A stretch of 24,000 nucleotides of DNA, taken from NCBI GenBank assembly GCA_964502345.1, contig CAZCWH010000006.1, positions 1,684-25,683 on the forward strand, given 5' to 3'. The stretch's first letter is position 1. The number at the start of each line of letters is the position of its first letter. This DNA is from an uncultured Candidatus Saccharibacteria bacterium (GTDB taxonomy: Bacteria > Patescibacteriota > Minisyncoccia > Phycocordibacterales > UBA918). A program made the position numbers and the translations under genes. Below the pieces are notes generated by a model. It was not told where the DNA came from and did not search any database. It saw nothing but the letters and a program-made list of their open reading frames with translations. Shown piece by piece: positions 1 to 23,292 of the stretch.

Positions 1-1784
1 TTGGTTGCATTTGCAACACTGACCCCGACCTCCACTACTGAAGTTGCGACGAGGATGTCGATATCGTGTTCAAGAAACCGCTTCATCGTTTTCTCTTTTT
101 CAGCAGGGGTCATCTTGCTGTGAAGAATTCCAATACGCGCATCTTTAAAAACACTTTTCTTGAGACGCTCCGCCTCGCTCTTTACTGATTTAAGTTGGAG
201 CGCATTCTCCATAAGTGGATCAGGTTCATCGATGCGTGGGCAGATGACGTATGCCTGTCGTCCATCTTTGAGTTCACTTCGAATATGTTTATAGACCTCC
301 TCGATACGAGTAGGGAGGACAACTTTAGTAATGATGGGCTTTCGTCCTTTCGGCATCTCGTCGAGGAGCGTGATATCGAGATCCCCATAGACGGTGAGTG
401 CTAAGGTGCGGGGAATTGGTGTCGCGGTCATAGATAAGAGGTGCGGCATCCTCGTATCTTTTTTCGCGAGCGCGCGTCGCTGGTTTGTGCCAAAGCGGTG
501 TTGTTCATCTATGATGACGTGGGCAAGGTGCTTAAATGCAACGGACTTATAAATAAGTGCATGAGTACCAATGAGGATGGGAATCTCGCCGTTCTGTACC
601 CATTTCAAAAGTTGAGCCTTTGAGATGGTTGTTGGTTTTGTGGGGTCGGTTTTTGAGGGGAATTTCATGCAGCCACTCCCCGTAATGAGGCCAATCTGAA
701 TAGGGAGGTGATGGAAGTATTCAATGAAGGACTCAAAATGCTGACGGGCGAGAATTTCAGTCGGCGCCATGTATGCCACCTGGAGATTACCAAATTGAAG
801 TTTGCTCGTGAGCCCCTCAGGGGGTCGGGATGTCGCGACTGCGTATGCAGTGGTCGCTGCTACCGCTGTCTTGCCACTTCCCACATCTCCCTCAAGGAGG
901 CGTGACATTGGATGTTTCCCACTGAAGTCCTTAAGCATGGCGTTGATGGCCCTGGTCTGTGCTCCTGTGAGCGGAAAGGGGAATCGACTTGTGAATGCTT
1001 CGATGTGCTCCCTGTCAGTCATAAACTGGTAGCTCGTCGCCACATTTATCTGTGCACGTTCATGTGCTTTTGCTACCTGAATTGAAAATACTTCTTCAAA
1101 AGCAAAACGCTTTCGTGCACTTTCTGCATGCTCAGCTTTCTTTGGAGTGTGTATCCATATGAGTGCCGTATTGAGTAGGGGGAGGTTGTATCGCTTCAAA
1201 ATTTCTTCAGGAATTGGATCCGTGAGTTTCTCTAGCACTCCTGCGTTAAAACATTTTTGCACCGTATGGAAGAACCACTTTGAGGTCACCCCCTTTGTCT
1301 CCCGGTACACAGGATAGATGGTTTCATCGAGATTCTCAGTATTGTTGAAAATCGAATCATGACGATCAATCGGAAGGCTTTCTAATTTTTCAATTTCAGG
1401 GTTTGCGAGATACAACTTTCCCTCAGTTCCTGTTACTTTGCCGGCGAGCTTCACGTAGGCGCCATCGACGAGCATCTTTGCAATGTATGGTTGATTGAAC
1501 CACATGATTTTAATACGTGCAGTCCCGTCCTCCACCCATCCTTCCGATATCGGCACACGACTCTTCCATGACTTTCTTGTTTTGAGTCCTCCGATGGCTC
1601 CATAGACGACAGCATCCTGACCTTTTACAAGCGACCCAACTGACTGAATTGATGAAATATCTTCGTAGCGCTGAGGGAGATGAAGGAGGAGGTCCAAGAC
1701 AGTATGAATTCCAAGGCGCTTGAGCGCCTTTTGATGTACTGCATCAATTCGAAAGTGGGTAGTGAGGAGGTCGGTAGGTGACAT
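1..1784 (-). CDS. recG: ATP-dependent DNA helicase RecG (3' end truncated by window start)
   Basis: Absent from the ORF track because the frame runs off position 1. Manual reverse translation from the ATG (complement of 1784-1782) gives MSPTDLLTTHFRIDA. The same frame contains PMSRLLEGDVGSGKTAVAATTAY (Walker A, about 840-910), VIIDEQHRFGTNQ (DEQH box, about 485-520) and GILHSKMTPAEKEKTMKRFLEHDIDILVATSVVEVGVSVANAT (helicase C-terminal motifs, about 5-140). The short ORFs listed at 182-1032 lie inside it. Confidence 0.9.
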   Translation of the reverse strand, partial: MSPTDLLTTHFRIDAVHQKALKRLGIHTVLDLLLHLPQRYEDISSIQSVGSLVKGQDAVVYGAIGGLKTRKSWKSRVPISEGWVEDGTARIKIMWFNQPYIAKMLVDGAYVKLAGKVTGTEGKLYLANPEIEKLESLPIDRHDSIFNNTENLDETIYPVYRETKGVTSKWFFHTVQKCFNAGVLEKLTDPIPEEILKRYNLPLLNTALIWIHTPKKAEHAESARKRFAFEEVFSIQVAKAHERAQINVATSYQFMTDREHIEAFTSRFPFPLTGAQTRAINAMLKDFSGKHPMSRLLEGDVGSGKTAVAATTAYAVATSRPPEGLTSKLQFGNLQVAYMAPTEILARQHFESFIEYFHHLPIQIGLITGSGCMKFPSKTDPTKPTTISKAQLLKWVQNGEIPILIGTHALIYKSVAFKHLAHVIIDEQHRFGTNQRRALAKKDTRMPHLLSMTATPIPRTLALTVYGDLDITLLDEMPKGRKPIITKVVLPTRIEEVYKHIRSELKDGRQAYVICPRIDEPDPLMENALQLKSVKSEAERLKKSVFKDARIGILHSKMTPAEKEKTMKRFLEHDIDILVATSVVEVGVSVANAT

Positions 1785-4911: not shown

Positions 4912-4968
4912 ACTCTATTCTGTAACGAAAATGGGTATATGTGCAAGCAAATATAAGTGCTTCTAGAA

Positions 4969-5001
4969 TGTGGGATTTGATCCTTACAGGATCTGTTCAG
5001 G
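4969..5001 (-). repeat. 33-nt direct repeat, copy 1 (tRNA-Ser T-arm seed plus GATCC-TTACA-GGATC hairpin)
   Basis: TGTGGGATTTGATCCTTACAGGATCTGTTCAGG is identical to 5061-5093. Its first 12 nt equal 5199-5210 inside tRNA-Ser. Confidence 0.9.
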
Positions 5002-5060
5002 GATTTGGTCACAGATAAATTTCTTACAGAAATTTTCCGCGACCCCGACTCGCTGAAAGG

Positions 5061-5093
5061 TGTGGGATTTGATCCTTACAGGATCTGTTCAGG
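5061..5093 (-). repeat. 33-nt direct repeat, copy 2
   Basis: Identical to 4969-5001. With the preceding G, 13 nt (5060-5072) equal 5198-5210 of tRNA-Ser. Confidence 0.9.
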
Positions 5094-5143
5094 TTGTATG
5101 ATATTTTCTTATAGAAAATATCGACAACCTCTTCAAATCCCAC
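5062..5143 (-). ncRNA. Candidate structured RNA / hairpin module A (three-stem element, function unknown)
   Basis: Read on the minus strand there are four pairings. Outer stem: GTGGGATTTGA (comp. 5143-5133) with TCAAATCCCAC (comp. 5072-5062). AGGTTGT (comp. 5130-5124) pairs with ACAACCT (comp. 5097-5091). GATATTTTC pairs with GAAAATATC (5100-5108 and 5114-5122). Hairpin GATCC-TGTAA-GGATC lies at 5071-5085. The module is homologous to 22868-22932 on the plus strand, with compensatory changes in the stems. Confidence 0.45.
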
Positions 5144-5149
5144 GCGCAG

Positions 5150-5189: not shown

Positions 5190-5191
5190 TG

Positions 5192-5278
5192 CGGAGAGTG
5201 TGGGATTTGAACCCACGAGGGTTTTAAGGCCCTGCCTCGTTAGCAGTGAGGTGCTTTCGACCACTCAGCCAACTCTCC
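5192..5278 (-). tRNA. tRNA-Ser (anticodon GCU), class II with long variable arm; CCA not encoded
   Basis: The minus strand reads GGAGAGT-TG-GCT-GAGTGGTCGAA-AGC-A-CCTCA-CTGCTAA-CGAGG-CAGGGCCTTAAAACCCTC-GTGGG-TTCAAAT-CCCAC-ACTCTCC-G. The acceptor, D and T stems pair. The anticodon stem has one A.C mismatch next to the loop. Confidence 0.9.
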
Positions 5279-8904: not shown

Positions 8905-10776
8905 GTGAATATGAATCTTCTTGCACTCCTAGAAGAAAAAAAGGTTATTGATAAGGAGGTCGCCTCGCGTGTTGAGGTGTATGCTCGTGAGCATAATGTT
9001 TCATATGAGCGCGCACTTCTTGAGGATGGTTTTGATGAAGAGGTGATTCGTACAACGGTGAGCGAGTATTTTGAACTTCCTCCGCGCACGATACCGGAAA
9101 ACGAAAAGATTGACCCTATGGTACTCAGGTATTTGCCTGAGGAGTCTGCTCGACACTATGGGATTATTCCGCTTCGCATGGAGGATGGAGTACTTGAGGT
9201 CGGTATCACCGATCCTGAAGATCTTTCGTTTCGCGATGCACTCAATTTTATCACTTCAAAACAGCAACTTCCGTATCGCCTCGCATACATTCTCGAACAA
9301 GATTTTGAACACGCAATGCACTCATACGAAAACCTCACCGGCGAGGTTGATGAGGCTCTTGTAGACCTAGAAACTGAACTCGAAGAAGATATTGCGGAGA
9401 AGACCGAAGAAGCGAAAAAAGATCAGCGGAAAGGTGACGGAGTGGAACATATCAAGGAAGATGCTCCGGTAACTAAGATTGTTGCCACGATACTCAGATA
9501 TGCTGTTGATGGTTCGGCGTCAGATATTCATATTGAACCAACAGAGAAGAAGGTGGTCGTACGTTTCCGTGTTGATGGGATACTCGAAAATAGCCTCGAA
9601 CTTCCTTTCAAAGTCCACCTTGCAGTTGTTGCACGTATTAAAATTCTAGCTTCGCTCAGGCTCGATGAGAAGCGTAAGCCTCAAGACGGTCGTTTTTCAG
9701 CATCGATTGATGGAAGACAGATAGACTTCCGTGTTTCAATTCTTCCAACGAGTCATGGTGAGAAAGTGGTAATGCGTATTCTCGATACCGAAACAGGTGT
9801 ACGTACACTTGAAGACACCGGTGTATCAAAGTACAACATCGAGCTCATTAGGAAAGCTATTGCTCAGCCATACGGTATCATCCTCATTTCAGGACCGACA
9901 GGTTCAGGTAAGTCGACAACCTTGTATGCGATGCTCTCAGAGGTTGATCGTGTCGGGAAGAACGTTATTTCACTCGAAGACCCGGTTGAATACAGTATTG
10001 AAGGAGTAAGTCAGTCGCAGATGCGTCCTGAGATTGGATACACGTTTGCAAACGGGCTTCGCACTGCACTTCGTCAGGACCCCGATGTCATCATGGTGGG
10101 GGAGATTCGTGATAAGGAGACAGCACAACTCGCTATTCAGGCGGCGCTTACTGGTCACCTTGTGCTGTCAACAATTCACACAAACAATGCTGCGGGAGTT
10201 ATACCTCGCCTCATTGATATGGGTGTGGATCCGTACCTTATCGCACCAACTCTCCAGTTAGCCATTGCTCAACGTCTTGTACGACGTATTTGTCCAAACT
10301 CCGGAAGAAAAGTACCTGTAGAAGGTGGTATTAAAATGATGCTCGAACATGAGTTTGATGGGCTTCCTGAAAAATATAGGACAAACATCCCGAAATTTGA
10401 GTCTATTCTCTACGCTGAGCCAACCGCTGAATGTTCAAATGGAACCAAAGGTCGTGTTGCGGTTATGGAAGCAATACAGATTAACGATGAAATCCAAAAG
10501 CTTATTCTCAGCAACTCCACTGAAGAGGAAATATTGAAGACTGCACGTAGGAACGGCTTTATGAGCATGAAGGAAGATGCAATCATTAAGGCGCTTGAGC
10601 ACTCCATTCCATTTGAGGAGATCAGTACTCTTGGAGGTGCACTTCTTATGTCAGATGAGGCTGAAGAAGAGGCAAAGGTCCCTGTAGAATTAACAGAAAC
10701 AGAAAAACTTGAGGCAGAGGGGATTGAAGTAGCAGATCCAACGCCTGTCGATAACCAAGAGATTCCGAAGTTTTAA
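8905..10776 (+). CDS. pilB: Type IV pilus extension ATPase PilB (GspE family)
   Basis: 623 aa. Has a T2SSE N-terminal domain (LPEESARHYGIIPL), Walker A GPTGSGKST, Asp box SLEDPVEY, Walker B DPDVIMVGEIRD and His box TGHLVLSTIHTNNA. The start is GTG 8905 or ATG 8911. Confidence 0.95.
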   Translation: MNMNLLALLEEKKVIDKEVASRVEVYAREHNVSYERALLEDGFDEEVIRTTVSEYFELPPRTIPENEKIDPMVLRYLPEESARHYGIIPLRMEDGVLEVGITDPEDLSFRDALNFITSKQQLPYRLAYILEQDFEHAMHSYENLTGEVDEALVDLETELEEDIAEKTEEAKKDQRKGDGVEHIKEDAPVTKIVATILRYAVDGSASDIHIEPTEKKVVVRFRVDGILENSLELPFKVHLAVVARIKILASLRLDEKRKPQDGRFSASIDGRQIDFRVSILPTSHGEKVVMRILDTETGVRTLEDTGVSKYNIELIRKAIAQPYGIILISGPTGSGKSTTLYAMLSEVDRVGKNVISLEDPVEYSIEGVSQSQMRPEIGYTFANGLRTALRQDPDVIMVGEIRDKETAQLAIQAALTGHLVLSTIHTNNAAGVIPRLIDMGVDPYLIAPTLQLAIAQRLVRRICPNSGRKVPVEGGIKMMLEHEFDGLPEKYRTNIPKFESILYAEPTAECSNGTKGRVAVMEAIQINDEIQKLILSNSTEEEILKTARRNGFMSMKEDAIIKALEHSIPFEEISTLGGALLMSDEAEEEAKVPVELTETEKLEAEGIEVADPTPVDNQEIPKF

Positions 10777-11199: not shown

Positions 11200-12256
11200 T
11201 TATAAAAGAGAATTAGAGGATCTCATTGATATCGTTATTACTGAAAACGGGTCTGATATCCATCTTTCACTTAATTCTCATCCAATCATTCGTGTCGCGG
11301 GAGCACTCATTCCACTCATTAAGAAGCCAATTTTAAATACGAACGATCTCACGGGATTTTTGCGTGTACTCCTTACTAAGGAGAAGGAGGCAAAATTTAT
11401 GGAGACAAGCGAAATCGACTTCTCGTTCGCTGCTCAAAAGGGAGTACGGTTTCGAGGTAACTGCTTTTTTCAGAAAGGGTCTATCGCGATTGCGCTTCGA
11501 CATATTCCGAGTAACGTTCGTACGTTTAGCGAGCTCATGCTCCCACCAATACTTGAGACATTTACACAGAGACCACAGGGATTTTTCCTTTGTGTGGGGC
11601 CGGTAGGACAGGGAAAGTCCACAACACTCGCCGCCATGGTTGATCTGATTAACTCAACACGCGCAGAGCACATTGTGACAATCGAAGATCCTATCGAGTA
11701 CATTTTTGAACCTAAAAAATCTCTTGTTGAACAACGTGAAGTGGGCCTTGATACAGCAGATTTTTATACTGGCCTCCACTCCGCATTCCGACAGGACGTA
11801 GACGTCATCATGGTGGGTGAGATGCGTGGTCATGAAACTATCAGTACAGCCGTAACCGCTGCAGAAACAGGTCACCTTGTGTTCTCGACACTCCACACAA
11901 ATAATGCTGCACAAACTCTCGACCGTATCATTGATACATTTCCTGCAGAGCAGCAAGATCAAATCCGTACCCAGCTTTCGGGCTCACTTGCAGCAATCTT
12001 CTCGCAACGACTCATTCCACGTATCTCAGGAGGTCTTATTCCAGCCTACGAGCTCCTCATAAATAACTCTGCAGTCGCAAATCTTATCCGTGAGAGGCGG
12101 ACACATGAAATTCAGACAGTCATTGAGACTGGGCTAGAACACGGTATGATAGATATGAACCGCTCGCTCGTTGAACTTGTTCAGAAAGGAGAAGTCACTG
12201 TCGAGAACGCCTTTGCGTATTCAACAAATCCAAAAGGTCTTGAACGTTTGATGTAA
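11186..12256 (+). CDS. pilT: Type IV pilus retraction ATPase PilT
   Basis: 356 aa. Contains GSDIHL, Walker A GPVGQGKSTT, TIEDPIEY, DVDVIMVGEMRG, TGHLVFSTLHTNNA and AANLIRE-type motifs. Confidence 0.93.
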   Translation: MATVDYKRELEDLIDIVITENGSDIHLSLNSHPIIRVAGALIPLIKKPILNTNDLTGFLRVLLTKEKEAKFMETSEIDFSFAAQKGVRFRGNCFFQKGSIAIALRHIPSNVRTFSELMLPPILETFTQRPQGFFLCVGPVGQGKSTTLAAMVDLINSTRAEHIVTIEDPIEYIFEPKKSLVEQREVGLDTADFYTGLHSAFRQDVDVIMVGEMRGHETISTAVTAAETGHLVFSTLHTNNAAQTLDRIIDTFPAEQQDQIRTQLSGSLAAIFSQRLIPRISGGLIPAYELLINNSAVANLIRERRTHEIQTVIETGLEHGMIDMNRSLVELVQKGEVTVENAFAYSTNPKGLERLM

Positions 12257-22039: not shown

Positions 22040-22648
22040 ATGTATCCACAAGTAAATTTTGAAGAGAGAACACTCGAAGGTCCCGGAATTGATATTTTCG
22101 GGCTTATTAAAGCAGCATTTGACGCCATTCGGGGTACGGATGGCACCTCGTTTATTGATATGATCGTGGGTTGGTGGAATATTTACTCTGTCATCGCAAT
22201 CATTTTCTCACTTCTTTTTTTCCTCGGATTTATATATGCAAAAATTCGTTACGGTGAACTATCAGATATTGAGCAGGAGGCACTTCGAGAAGCCGAAGCA
22301 AAGTGGCTCGCAATGACAGGGGGATTGAAGACTGAAAACAATAGATGGTCTGAGATAGAGCGCCACAGTAATGAGGAGAATCCAAACTCGTGGCGAATCG
22401 CGATTATCGAGGCCGATATCCTACTTGAGGAGACATTGAATAATGCTGGATATGTTGGCGCAACAATGAGCGAGAAGCTCAAATCAGCAAACGTAACTTC
22501 GTTTACGACATTACAAGATGCATGGGAAGCACATAAGGTTCGTAATGAAATTGCACACGTTGGAAGTGATTTTGTCCTTACAAAACGGATTGCACAAGAA
22601 ACGCTTACGCGATACGAGCGTGTGTTCAAGGAATTTGGCGTTATATAG
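22040..22648 (+). CDS. Membrane-anchored hypothetical protein with C-terminal HEPN-like RNxxxH motif
   Basis: 202 aa. One TM helix (WWNIYSVIAIIFSLLFFLGFIY), then a helical domain ending in WEAHKVRNEIAHVG (the Rx4H pattern of HEPN/DUF4145-type domains). This is motif-level evidence only. Confidence 0.4.
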   Translation: MYPQVNFEERTLEGPGIDIFGLIKAAFDAIRGTDGTSFIDMIVGWWNIYSVIAIIFSLLFFLGFIYAKIRYGELSDIEQEALREAEAKWLAMTGGLKTENNRWSEIERHSNEENPNSWRIAIIEADILLEETLNNAGYVGATMSEKLKSANVTSFTTLQDAWEAHKVRNEIAHVGSDFVLTKRIAQETLTRYERVFKEFGVI

Positions 22649-22742
22649 TTTGCATATCTCTGAGACATGAGGTACATTCTTGTGTACATTATGTTGTTCA
22701 CGTTGAACACATAACACACTTCAACGCGAGTAGAGGAAGAGG

Positions 22743-22811
22743 GTAATCAATCCAGTGGATTGATTACGGGGAGGCGTAGCCTCCCGAGGACTTTCTTTAC
22801 TCCGCAAGGAG
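22743..22811 (+). other. Three consecutive stable hairpins upstream of the initiator tRNA locus (unassigned structured region)
   Basis: Hairpin 1: GTAATCAATCC-AGT-GGATTGATTAC (22743-22767, 11 bp). Hairpin 2: GGGAGGC-GTA-GCCTCCC (22769-22785, 7 bp). Hairpin 3: CTCC-GCAA-GGAG (22800-22811, GNRA-type loop). Confidence 0.5.
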
Positions 22812-22822
22812 ACATATAATCG

Positions 22823-22844
22823 TCAGATTAATTCATCGCGGGGT
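22823..22844 (+). repeat. 22-nt direct repeat, copy 1 (14 nt of upstream leader plus first 8 nt of initiator tRNA)
   Basis: TCAGATTAATTCATCGCGGGGT is identical to 22946-22967. A TATAAT hexamer lies just upstream at 22815-22820. Confidence 0.9.
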
Positions 22845-22867
22845 GAGACAGTCCTGTGGACTGTCGC

Positions 22868-22932
22868 AAGAGGTTGTCCATATTTCGAGTTTACGAGAAA
22901 TATGATACAACCTGAACAGGTTCTGTAAGAAC
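22868..22932 (+). ncRNA. Candidate structured RNA / hairpin module B (homologue of module A at 5062-5143)
   Basis: Sequence: AAGAGGTTGTC-CATATTTC-(loop)-GAAATATG-AT-ACAACCTGAACAG-GTTC-TGTAA-GAAC. It shares AAGAGGTTGTC and ATACAACCTGAACAG with module A. In the stems, paired positions are changed on both sides. Confidence 0.45.
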
Positions 22933-22945
22933 GAGGAGAGGTAGA

Positions 22946-22967
22946 TCAGATTAATTCATCGCGGGGT
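22946..22967 (+). repeat. 22-nt direct repeat, copy 2 (overlaps the true 5' end of initiator tRNA)
   Basis: Identical to 22823-22844. The period is 123 nt. Confidence 0.9.
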
Positions 22968-23030
22968 AGAGGAGAGGTACCTCGGGAGGCTCATAACCTC
23001 CAGACCCCGGTTCGATTCCGGGCCCCGCAA
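22960..23030 (+). tRNA. Initiator tRNA-Met (anticodon CAU); CCA not encoded
   Basis: Reads CGCGGGG-TA-GAGG-AGAGGTA-CCTC-G-GGAGG-CTCATAA-CCTCC-AGAC-CCCGG-TTCGATT-CCGGG-CCCCGCA-A. All four stems pair. The C1xA72 mismatch and A11:U24 pair are bacterial initiator determinants. It is 71 nt long, with a short D loop and a 4-nt variable loop. Confidence 0.88.
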
Positions 23031-23035
23031 CAAGA

Positions 23036-23069
23036 AACACAAAAGCCACCTCAGAGTGGCTTTTGTGTT
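23036..23069 (+). terminator. Rho-independent terminator after initiator tRNA
   Basis: A perfect 14-bp stem: AACACAAAAGCCAC (23036-23049) pairs with GTGGCTTTTGTGTT (23056-23069). The 3' arm is U-rich. Confidence 0.65.
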
Positions 23070-23074
23070 ACGCC

Positions 23075-23124
23075 GTTGCGGGGCCAGCAAGCAAAATGCT
23101 TTGCTTGCGTCGGAATCGAACGAG
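23075..23124 (-). pseudogene. Inverted, degenerate copy of the initiator tRNA 3' half interrupted by a 22-nt hairpin
   Basis: GTTGCGGGGCC (23075-23085) is the exact reverse complement of tRNA positions 23021-23031. GGAATCGAAC (23112-23121) is the reverse complement of the T-loop segment 23010-23019. Between them lies the hairpin GCAAGCAAA-ATGC-TTTGCTTGC (23087-23108). The T stem does not pair, so this is not a functional tRNA. Confidence 0.5.
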
Positions 23125-23292
23125 CGGAACCATGTTTCGGCTAAACAAAATGCCGAAACGGGTGAGCTGAGCTAACAGATACTTATGAGCGTAGCGAATT
23201 AGTAATCTGATGTCGATTCTATACCCTCATTACCTGATTCTGTGACTAAACGCATCCTCAAACACATGTTTTTGTGATATAAATGCAGGCAT

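Follow-up and report, generated by a model that had tools for sequence, protein, structure and literature searches.

In its behaviour, the element described here has its closest known analogue in the tyrT/rtT repeats of Escherichia coli. The element lies within a 123-nt unit directly upstream of the initiator tRNA gene in a 24,000-nt stretch (hereafter the window) of a contig from an uncultured Candidatus Saccharibacteria bacterium, of the Patescibacteria or Candidate Phyla Radiation (CPR). In E. coli K-12, which we checked, three 178-nt repeats follow tyrV, each starting with the last 19 nt of tRNA-Tyr; 19 nt of the last repeat fall within the tyrV 3' end, and this repeat bears the rttR annotation. 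At tyrT, one repeated unit encodes the small RNA (sRNA) (PMC3318445), and the RttR sRNA has been linked to processing of the tyrT transcript (bioRxiv 10.1101/2024.07.17.603846). As with tyrT/rtT, the CPR units adjoin a tRNA in the same orientation and carry its terminal nucleotides (22 of 22 nt in the window), and tandem arrays are also found (loci L047, L114, L144, and L011; L numbers denote the loci fetched for comparison). However, there is no homology in either sequence or structure; no rtT match from Rfam was obtained at E<=10 in either window tRNA locus. Furthermore, the CPR family has a phylum-wide core, has many tRNAs, transfer-messenger RNA (tmRNA), and comM as its targets, and occurs on the 5' side as well, at internal tRNA positions (8/9, 24/25, and the T-loop).

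Other described systems share some of these traits. PATEs, which are derived from IS200/IS605, and REP/RAYT elements are small, non-coding, strand-specific and hairpin-ended, and are mobilised in trans; they lack inverted repeats and target duplications and reside in intergenic regions or 3'-UTRs. Our element resembles PATEs in lacking inverted repeats and target duplications, in having a hairpin at each end (A and C, below), and in its strand-biased fold (GU 22 vs AC 4). It differs in that its end hairpins are unlike each other, its copies are few and diverged, and its targets are partial gene copies rather than a fixed tetra- or pentanucleotide, with only the final G of the left flank being constant; in addition, no HUH transposase was seen near it in the loci around the copies. 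In the same loci, the lack of terminal inverted repeats, of a fixed target duplication, and of near-identical copies sets it apart from MITEs and classical insertion sequences. As with tRNA-targeting integrative elements, an intact gene stands beside a displaced duplicate of the gene end that begins at the T-loop, and the same logic holds at comM, but the element carries neither integrase nor cargo, its insert is ~100 nt, and 5'-end duplicates, inverted copies, and nesting are observed. Finally, archaeal mobile tRNA introns, as far as they are summarised in PMC10714607 (citing Fujishima 2010), are short structured inserts at non-canonical positions of several tRNAs. Our inserts are likewise structured, at non-canonical tRNA positions, and recurrent in several tRNAs. 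In contrast, the interrupted CPR copies are truncated, an intact gene lies next door, and the host is bacterial; no bulge-helix-bulge motif was seen in the element, although no test was aimed at this motif. Repeats linked to tRNAs are already known as such, and what is new here is the structured core together with a class of tRNA-linked units that is absent from Rfam.

The insert in the window is one copy of a previously uncatalogued family of ~90-nt, three-hairpin elements that is found phylum-wide in the Patescibacteria. The 123-nt unit that carries it is a truncated copy of the leader and nucleotides 1-20 of the tRNA, with the element inserted at position 8/9. The gene next to it, tRNA-Met(CAT) at 22960-23031, was called by ARAGORN, scored 59.1 bits with the Rfam tRNA model, and has the C1/A72 mismatch that is a feature of bacterial initiators. 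In order, the unit comprises a 14-nt leader with tRNA nucleotides 1-8, the 88-nt insert, tRNA nucleotides 10-20, and a GA filler, after which come the real leader and the complete tRNA. The initial annotation of this locus had described its architecture correctly. The 22-nt sequence TCAGATTAATTCATCGCGGGGT is present at 22823-22844 and, with 100% identity (repeat family D13), at 22946-22967, where it provides the true 5' end of the initiator tRNA; an 11-nt copy of the D-arm, GAGGAGAGGTA, is present at 22933-22943 and 22969-22979; the 8-bp hairpin GACAGTCC-TGT-GGACTGTC lies at 22847-22865; and a TATAAT (22815-22820) precedes the first repeat copy, with no such box before the second. By an arithmetical estimate, ~1.6e-5 exact 22-nt repeats would be expected by chance in 24 kb. 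For the 22-nt repeat, local duplication of a short segment spanning the tRNA 5' boundary is a better explanation than a target-site duplication.

On the plus strand, the first repeat copy (22823-22844), which maps to tRNA positions -13 to 8 and comprises the 14-nt leader and decoy nucleotides 1-8, is followed by a sequence that folds into hairpins A, B, and C. Hairpin A (22844-22868; UGAGAcagucc-UGU-ggacugUCGCA) includes a conserved A.G mismatch, and its helix 1 covaries, with changes on both sides at 6/6 pairs. An invariant CAAGA (22867-22871) precedes hairpin B (22871-22913), a long irregular stem whose 6-bp base covaries (GC/CG/UA/AU), and an invariant junction, GAACAG (22914-22919), leads into hairpin C (22920-22932; GUUCU-GUA-AGAAC). 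Hairpin C is capped by a GUA triloop, and compensatory both-side changes were found at 5/5 of its stem pairs, the outermost of which occurs as four pair types. The copy of tRNA nucleotides 10-20 with its 2-nt GA filler occupies 22933-22945, and the second repeat copy then runs as the real leader into the intact tRNA (22946-23031). A GAGGAGAGG block is also present 3' of the element in L005, L125, L144, L084, L111, and L044. Module B (22868-22929) is common to the tRNA-Ser locus of the window, in the same orientation relative to each tRNA (I1, 91%; I17, 94%), and, as had been annotated, the units there end in copies of the tRNA-Ser 3' end (repeat families D3/D4). The CTGAACAGNNNCTGTAAG motif occurs three times in the window compared to 0.05 expected.

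Beyond the window, a 21-nt pattern, CCTGAACAGRTYCTGTAAGRA, was matched by 41 stretches in the species-representative genome collection, against ~2 expected (arithmetical estimate), and 39 of these lay in Saccharibacteria, Kaiserbacteria, Paceibacteria, Parcubacteria, or CPR-like metagenome-assembled genomes (MAGs). The core of the element recurs in many metagenome contigs as well. Its consensus of ~90 nt reads GUGAGA-hairpin A-UCGC, CAAGA, long hairpin B, UGNACAG, and hairpin C with the GUA triloop, and the unpaired (G)UGAGA, CAAGA, UGNACAG, and CUGUAAG are invariant or nearly so. In a seed alignment of 28 copies, 12 of the 17 consensus pairs had compensatory double changes. A covariance model built from this seed was used to scan 0.94 Mb of fetched loci and returned 94 copies at a threshold of E<1e-3. 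Across the 86 aligned copies, 98% of cells were paired, compared to 73% after shuffling and 34-50% when the partners were slid, and all 17 pairs had changed on both sides (270 cells vs 57 in shuffles). Within the element pairs, GU/UG outnumbered AC/CA by 22 to 4, indicating that the folding strand is the sense strand, co-oriented with the tRNA.

We found no earlier record of this family. No Rfam 15 match at gathering thresholds overlapped the element in the window and 18 loci, where the gathering-score matches were to tRNA, tmRNA, and one group I intron only, and even at E<=10 nothing lay over the element in both window tRNA loci or in a unit of L114. A full-text search of the literature on CPR/Saccharibacteria tRNAs, introns, motifs, and repeats returned no description of the element.

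In the Patescibacteria, copies of the element are found almost only inside partial or remodelled copies of tRNA genes, of tmRNA genes or, rarely, of the 3' end of a protein gene. Of the 94 covariance-model matches, 71 were located within 300 nt of a tRNA or tmRNA, 63 of them co-oriented and 8 opposite. Among loci chosen for the initiator tRNA alone, an upstream copy was present at 10 of the 118 initiator tRNAs, and a co-oriented copy at 22 of the 123 other tRNAs (elongator Met, 15/51; Asp, 5/35). The targets amount to at least 12 tRNA species, tmRNA, and comM. The partial gene copy that carries the element always adjoins the intact gene, usually on the same strand.

Two layouts recur at tRNAs. 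In upstream units, the 5' flank exactly duplicates the leader and the tRNA up to a fixed position, and a few further tRNA nucleotides come after the element. The break is at position 8 in the upstream fMet units of a dozen loci, which include both the CGCGGGG and AGCGGGG lineages; at position 24 in units of Val, Asn, and Thr; at position 5 in a Gln unit (L037); at 51-53 in another Gln unit (L028) and a Cys unit (L027); and at 54 in a Gly unit (L014). In downstream units, which can form arrays of two or three, it is the 3' flank that is an exact copy; it starts in the T-loop and extends past the tRNA 3' end to include trailer and terminator. On the 5' side there is a short stretch complementary to the T-loop and, in many cases, the acceptor 5' strand is copied as well, giving a tRNA-like fold. 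A short variant was observed in L110 (953-1041, minus strand), where the decoy CGGGGU is followed by hairpin A, AAGA, and then directly by CCCCGCAAC, the 3' acceptor strand of tRNA-fMet; this variant is an acceptor-stem minihelix that lacks hairpins B and C.

At comM, the element is inserted at the same codons (..ARTIADL..) in four genomes (L024:3670-4020, L036:3775-4440, L018:3185-3475, and L007:2975-3460). Here the intact gene is followed by a 12-nt inverted copy that closes a stem, the element, and an orphan comM 3' end; in L007, the comM open reading frame (ORF) is truncated to 426 aa. A few copies of the element lie after rplB, fusA, or rnc.

In the loci scanned, we did not see an intact single-copy tRNA gene interrupted by the element. 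The decoy in the window lacks tRNA nucleotides 21-72, and copies in L028, L002, and L014 lack the matching 3' acceptor strand. A tRNA intron, whether of group I or of the archaeal type, was considered and rejected because removing the insert does not restore a complete tRNA; the interrupted copies cannot yield one. A genuine group I intron (RF00028, 62.5 bits) was encountered at L005:4876-5065, where it interrupts the anticodon loop of an initiator tRNA in a member of the Saccharibacteria; ARAGORN had missed this tRNA, which also has an upstream element unit.

A view of gain and loss is provided by the gene that precedes the unit. This 202-aa ORF (22040-22648, plus strand) has no Pfam match and ~1000 homologues, and it is followed by a same-strand initiator tRNA in ~73 of 120 CPR metagenome loci (L042-L161) as in the window, a strikingly conserved synteny. 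ORF and tRNA-fMet are at most 100 nt apart in 42 of these ~73 syntenic loci, and the element is carried by 9 of them and by the window. A spacer this short represents an empty site, in which a promoter-like site is followed by the tRNA (for example L058, L157, L095, L042, and L060). Full units are found in L005, L125, L144, L164, L084, and others; remnants in L083 and L104 have kept only hairpin C and GAGGAGAGGTA; and decoys free of the element are present in L011, L096, and L144. A 69%-identical relative (L164) carries the unit, with the contig ending inside it, and a 68% relative (L163) is rearranged. A search for a strain-level empty site by exact-protein look-up of the window ORF gave no match, and when all loci were compared with one another by megablast, no pair was informative as to presence or absence. 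The empty-site comparison that the initial annotation had proposed thus yielded empty, remnant, and full orthologous initiator loci, and this patchy presence among equally related genomes is not the arrangement shared by all relatives that the annotation had set against its own view. Two contigs, L011 and L025 (JBLIMJ01), that hold a CPR-type initiator tRNA, a homologue of the 202-aa ORF, and elements are labelled Acidimicrobiales; they are probably of CPR origin and mis-assigned to an actinobacterial MAG during binning.

The insertions look clean: the left flank always ends in a G before UGAGA, 0-2 nt of the target are lost, and there is no duplication. Two elements have a complete element nested within them (L030:7700-7930 and L018:3290-3460), again without target duplication, one in the loop of hairpin A and the other after AAGAG at the base of hairpin B. 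The nearest relative of each copy is a copy at the same target in another genome, as seen for fMet (L005/L125/L144, 0.86-0.90), Val (L033/L038/L021), and comM (L036/L024/L007). In the loci around the matches, copies within a genome were at most ~0.80 identical, with the exception of a perfect local tandem duplicate in L047. There, two identical 136-nt tandem units (1380-1680, minus strand) lie after an elongator tRNA-Met, each ending in a copy of the stretch from T-loop to 3' end, and their identity points to a recent local duplication.

The initial annotation had suggested one family of small elements that insert at, or recombine with, the termini of tRNA genes. One structured family linked to tRNA ends is indeed what we find, given its phylum-wide spread and its proximity to tRNA and tmRNA genes. 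Insertion at the termini as such does not hold, since the breaks are internal (8/9, 24/25, 53/54) and also lie in the comM 3' end. Nor was current mobility borne out. Besides the divergence of copies within genomes, no terminal inverted repeats were present at the unit ends, and the flanking repeats are tRNA segments of 8 to >50 nt rather than a target duplication of fixed length. No transposase or integrase was seen beside the element at ~10 inspected loci; Pfam matches on the flanking ORFs were to ComM, RNase III, L2, EF-G, a pilin-like protein, and a glycosyl hydrolase.

Taken together, we favour, with moderate confidence, the reading that the element is an old structured module derived from an insertion, which has been retained within decoy fragments of tRNAs and is transcribed together with the tRNA. 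Its origin would involve three steps. First, a short local duplication across the tRNA boundary would generate a harmless decoy. The element would then insert cleanly into this tRNA-like decoy, after a G and with loss of 0-2 nt. Because these tRNAs are single-copy and essential, so that a hit in the intact gene would be lethal, insertions would survive in decoys only. Finally, recombination between the flanking repeats would delete unit and decoy, producing the mixture of empty, remnant, and full loci. As to how the repeats themselves came about, retro-duplication, with repeats bounded by transcript ends, is compatible with the data, and tandem arrays from unequal crossing-over fit equally well.

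As for how the unit works, its position, 3' of a conserved promoter-like site (22650-22678) and 5' of the tRNA, means that it should belong to a long pre-tRNA leader. Transcription would start from this upstream site, as judged from position and orientation, and the hairpins would fold in the RNA. RNase P would then cut at the real +1, which would separate the tRNA from a structured leader RNA. A long precursor that begins with the decoy, as the initial annotation had envisaged, is therefore plausible, and the predicted fold allows the decoy 5' strand to take the place of the real one in the acceptor stem. The long persistence of copies at orthologous sites, together with invariant unpaired motifs, points to a sequence-specific role at the RNA level, for example as a protein-binding or processing module.

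Several points weigh against this reading. Presence at ~10-30% of loci means that the unit is dispensable, which weakens any claim of an essential function. An origin in two steps, decoy first and insertion second, is only the most economical reading, and it leaves unaccounted for both the short inverted 'anti-T-loop' pieces of downstream units, whose sequence follows that of the local T-loop, and the reason why short boundary duplications should be frequent in such compact genomes. Co-transcription and release by RNase P are what we infer from the layout. In addition, the 86-copy alignment was fitted to the covariance model, so its pairing figures lean towards the model structure, and the loci came from motif- or tRNA-anchored searches rather than whole genomes. 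Finally, covariation and tolerance of G.T pairs would be expected, too, for the hairpins of a single-stranded DNA transposition mechanism.

A broader possibility, which we regard as tentative, is that the element represents a new RNA-level agent specific to tRNA genes, in the form of either an insertion element that is RNA-guided or ribozyme-like, or a small RNA scaffolded on a tRNA. As an insertion element, it may home to helix ends in tRNA-like sequence with the anti-T-loop segment as its guide, and it may survive through the gene-end duplicate that keeps the tRNA intact. As a tRNA-scaffolded RNA, it may be excised by tRNA processing, with the CAAGA/UGNACAG/CUGUAAG core binding a CPR-specific partner.

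It is rather unlikely, in our estimation, that the family is instead an active selfish element, that is, a non-autonomous, hairpin-ended insertion sequence of no benefit to the host that targets structured tRNA DNA and is mobilised in trans, for instance by an HUH single-strand transposase as in IS200/IS605-derived PATEs or REP/RAYT. Clean insertion after a G without target duplication or inverted repeats, hairpins at both ends, the two nested insertions, and the range of targets (at least 12 tRNA species, tmRNA, and comM) would all be consistent with such an element, as would the coexistence of empty, remnant, and full states at orthologous sites. The strand bias could reflect the direction of replication, and metagenome contigs break inside the element. 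However, copies that are at most 80% identical within a genome and cluster by target across genomes do not suggest ongoing movement, hairpins A and C are unlike whereas the ends of IS200/IS605 are alike, and no transposase adjoined the element at the ~10 loci inspected. Moreover, there were no matches (0) in viral contigs or phage records, and the unpaired motifs are invariant across classes. A phage or plasmid origin was rejected, as the motif had 0 matches in viral contigs and blastn found no match in phage records.

We consider it improbable that the unit is a regulatory decoy, a cis-acting switch in which the decoy acceptor strand rivals the real 5' strand and tunes RNase P processing or the yield of initiator tRNA. 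The minimum free energy (MFE) fold predicted for 22823-23070 (-97.9 kcal/mol, z = -5.8) does have the decoy, and not the real 5' end, paired with the 3' acceptor strand of the tRNA, so a competing fold is possible. Nevertheless, the two acceptor pairings are isoenergetic by construction, which makes the fold weak evidence. Also in favour of such a switch, decoy nucleotides 1-8 and the 10-18 block are kept in fMet units of distant lineages whose spacers cannot be aligned, and in L110 the decoy, hairpin A, and the 3' acceptor strand form an acceptor minihelix. Yet competition is impossible at several places where the same element occurs, namely downstream of tRNAs, at comM, and behind rplB, fusA, and rnc; moreover, most initiator loci lack it.

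A small self-cleaving or processing ribozyme, with a three-way junction and ~20 invariant unpaired nucleotides, that cuts at the boundary to separate tRNAs from co-transcribed RNA has, in our view, slighter prospects still. It would account for the invariance of CAAGA, UGNACAG, and CUGUAAG beside freely covarying stems and for an element that is co-oriented with tRNAs and placed exactly at the boundaries of tRNA fragments, but no known Rfam ribozyme class was matched, even at E<=10, and the closing P1 stem is missing from some copies. On visual inspection, the core matches neither the hammerhead (CUGANGA/GAAA) nor the hairpin-ribozyme motifs, and an 11-nt match between hairpin A of the window and the substrate of the hairpin ribozyme was discarded since other copies do not have it.

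An identity block that runs from the T-loop to the 3' end is the classic layout of tRNA-integrating islands, and comM is a known integration target. The idea that the direct repeats are att sites of such elements, with the module being an att-flanking arm left after deletion of the island, gains from the downstream units, whose identity block begins in the T-loop and extends past the tRNA 3' end, but it is very improbable and largely refuted. No integrase or island was found at >90 sites, and the neighbours are housekeeping genes; the insert measures no more than 90-200 nt; the T-loop is split by the element, so that there is no contiguous core; and the viral collections gave 0 matches. Units of the 5'-end type, nested copies, and strong strand-specific covariation are likewise at odds with this idea. 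The window itself is an ordinary bacterial chromosome segment, with gatA, ligA, type IV pilus genes, and a nucleotidyl transferase.

A large part of bacterial diversity belongs to the Patescibacteria, in whose tiny genomes most tRNA genes are single-copy. That ~10-30% of sampled tRNA loci tolerate decoys loaded with a conserved, structured module is unexpected in such genomes. If the element is a functional RNA, it is a new, widespread, and strongly covarying motif outside Rfam that would bear on the processing or control of CPR tRNAs. If it is selfish, it has found a route into essential single-copy RNA genes that does not kill the host, by way of locally duplicated gene ends, and this would also explain why CPR contigs break at tRNA loci. 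Under either reading, the covariance model serves as an annotation tool.

The surroundings of the initiator tRNA contain several further features on the plus strand. The promoter-like site just 3' of the upstream gene (22650-22678) consists of a -35 element, TTGCAT (22650-22655), a 17-nt spacer, and a -10 element, TACATT (22673-22678). A TTTGC..(17)..GGTACATTC block is kept at the same place in L125, L005, L083, L132, and L159, and in the empty loci L058, L157, and L095 a promoter-like site stands directly before the tRNA. A generic promoter scan did not flag the site at 22650-22678; as judged from its conservation and position, it is likely the ancestral tRNA promoter. The TATAAT box, 2 nt before the first repeat copy, may be a second promoter; it has no good -35 at 17 nt, and the promoter scan did not flag it. 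On the minus strand, a candidate antisense promoter inside the element (CTTACA-16-TATCAT), which the scan did flag, was rejected because its -10 part varies among hairpin B variants while the stems covary.

Between the promoter-like site and the unit lies an older, remodelled partial copy of tRNA-fMet (22725-22789). It consists of CGCGAGTAGAGGAAGAGGGTAA, a hairpin (22747-22763), and then the anticodon stem, in which the loop has been swapped for C-GUA-G (GGGAGG-CGTAG-CCTCCC). The same block is found between the unit and the tRNA in L144, and an Asn decoy in L017 has the same replacement of its anticodon loop (GTTGA-CGTAG-TCAAC). GUA triloops recur in other settings: they close hairpin C, replace the anticodon loops of decoys as C-GUA-G, and cap B-type hairpins, where they sit in a UGAGC-GUA-GCGAA motif with tandem G.A pairs. 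Such sites were noted in the window (22778-22782 and 23190-23196) and in L017, L144, L086, L083, L132, and L157, which suggests a shared recognition or stability motif.

Downstream of the initiator tRNA, a terminator-like hairpin (23036-23069) is followed by a degenerate downstream unit (23075-23219, repeat I21). The scan found the 15-bp hairpin of the former but called it on the minus strand. At the start of the downstream unit, the complement of the tRNA 3' end (GTTGCGGGGCC..CGGAATCGAAC) is split by a perfect 9-bp hairpin; an inner hairpin (23134-23159), a B-like hairpin (23176-23209) with the tip UGAGC-GUA-GCGAA, and a decayed T-loop copy, ATGTCGATTC, are also present. Intact versions end in GTCGATTCCGGGCCCCGCAACA (L132, L083, L157, and L095), and the module of this unit is carried by L039 and L031 as well. 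A hidden minus-strand tRNA at this place was ruled out, as neither ARAGORN nor Rfam found one and the region is a plus-strand unit homologous to those in L132, L083, L157, L039, and L031. On its minus strand, TCAGATTACTAATTCGC (23197-23215) resembles the duplicated tRNA leader TCAGATTAATTCATCGC (22823-22839); this may be a chance resemblance, or an inverted B-type hairpin may have given rise to the leader.

Two units (4965-5147, minus strand) lie downstream of tRNA-Ser(GCT) (5191-5278, minus strand). The first (5057-5147) comprises an anti-T-loop segment, GTGGGATTTGA, hairpins B and C, and TCAAATCCCACAC, and scored 53.9 bits with the covariance model (5069-5147). The second (4965-5056), a weaker variant, shares hairpin C and the tRNA 3' copy with the first and scored 22.3 bits (4977-5053). 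Elsewhere in the window, 10054-10193 and 11771-11910 form a pair of diverged direct repeats (74-84% identity). The former lies inside a Pfam-confirmed T2SSE (PilB-type) secretion ATPase gene and the latter in the adjacent ORF, which is probably a PilT-type paralogue, and this pair is ordinary paralogy within the type IV pilus cluster.

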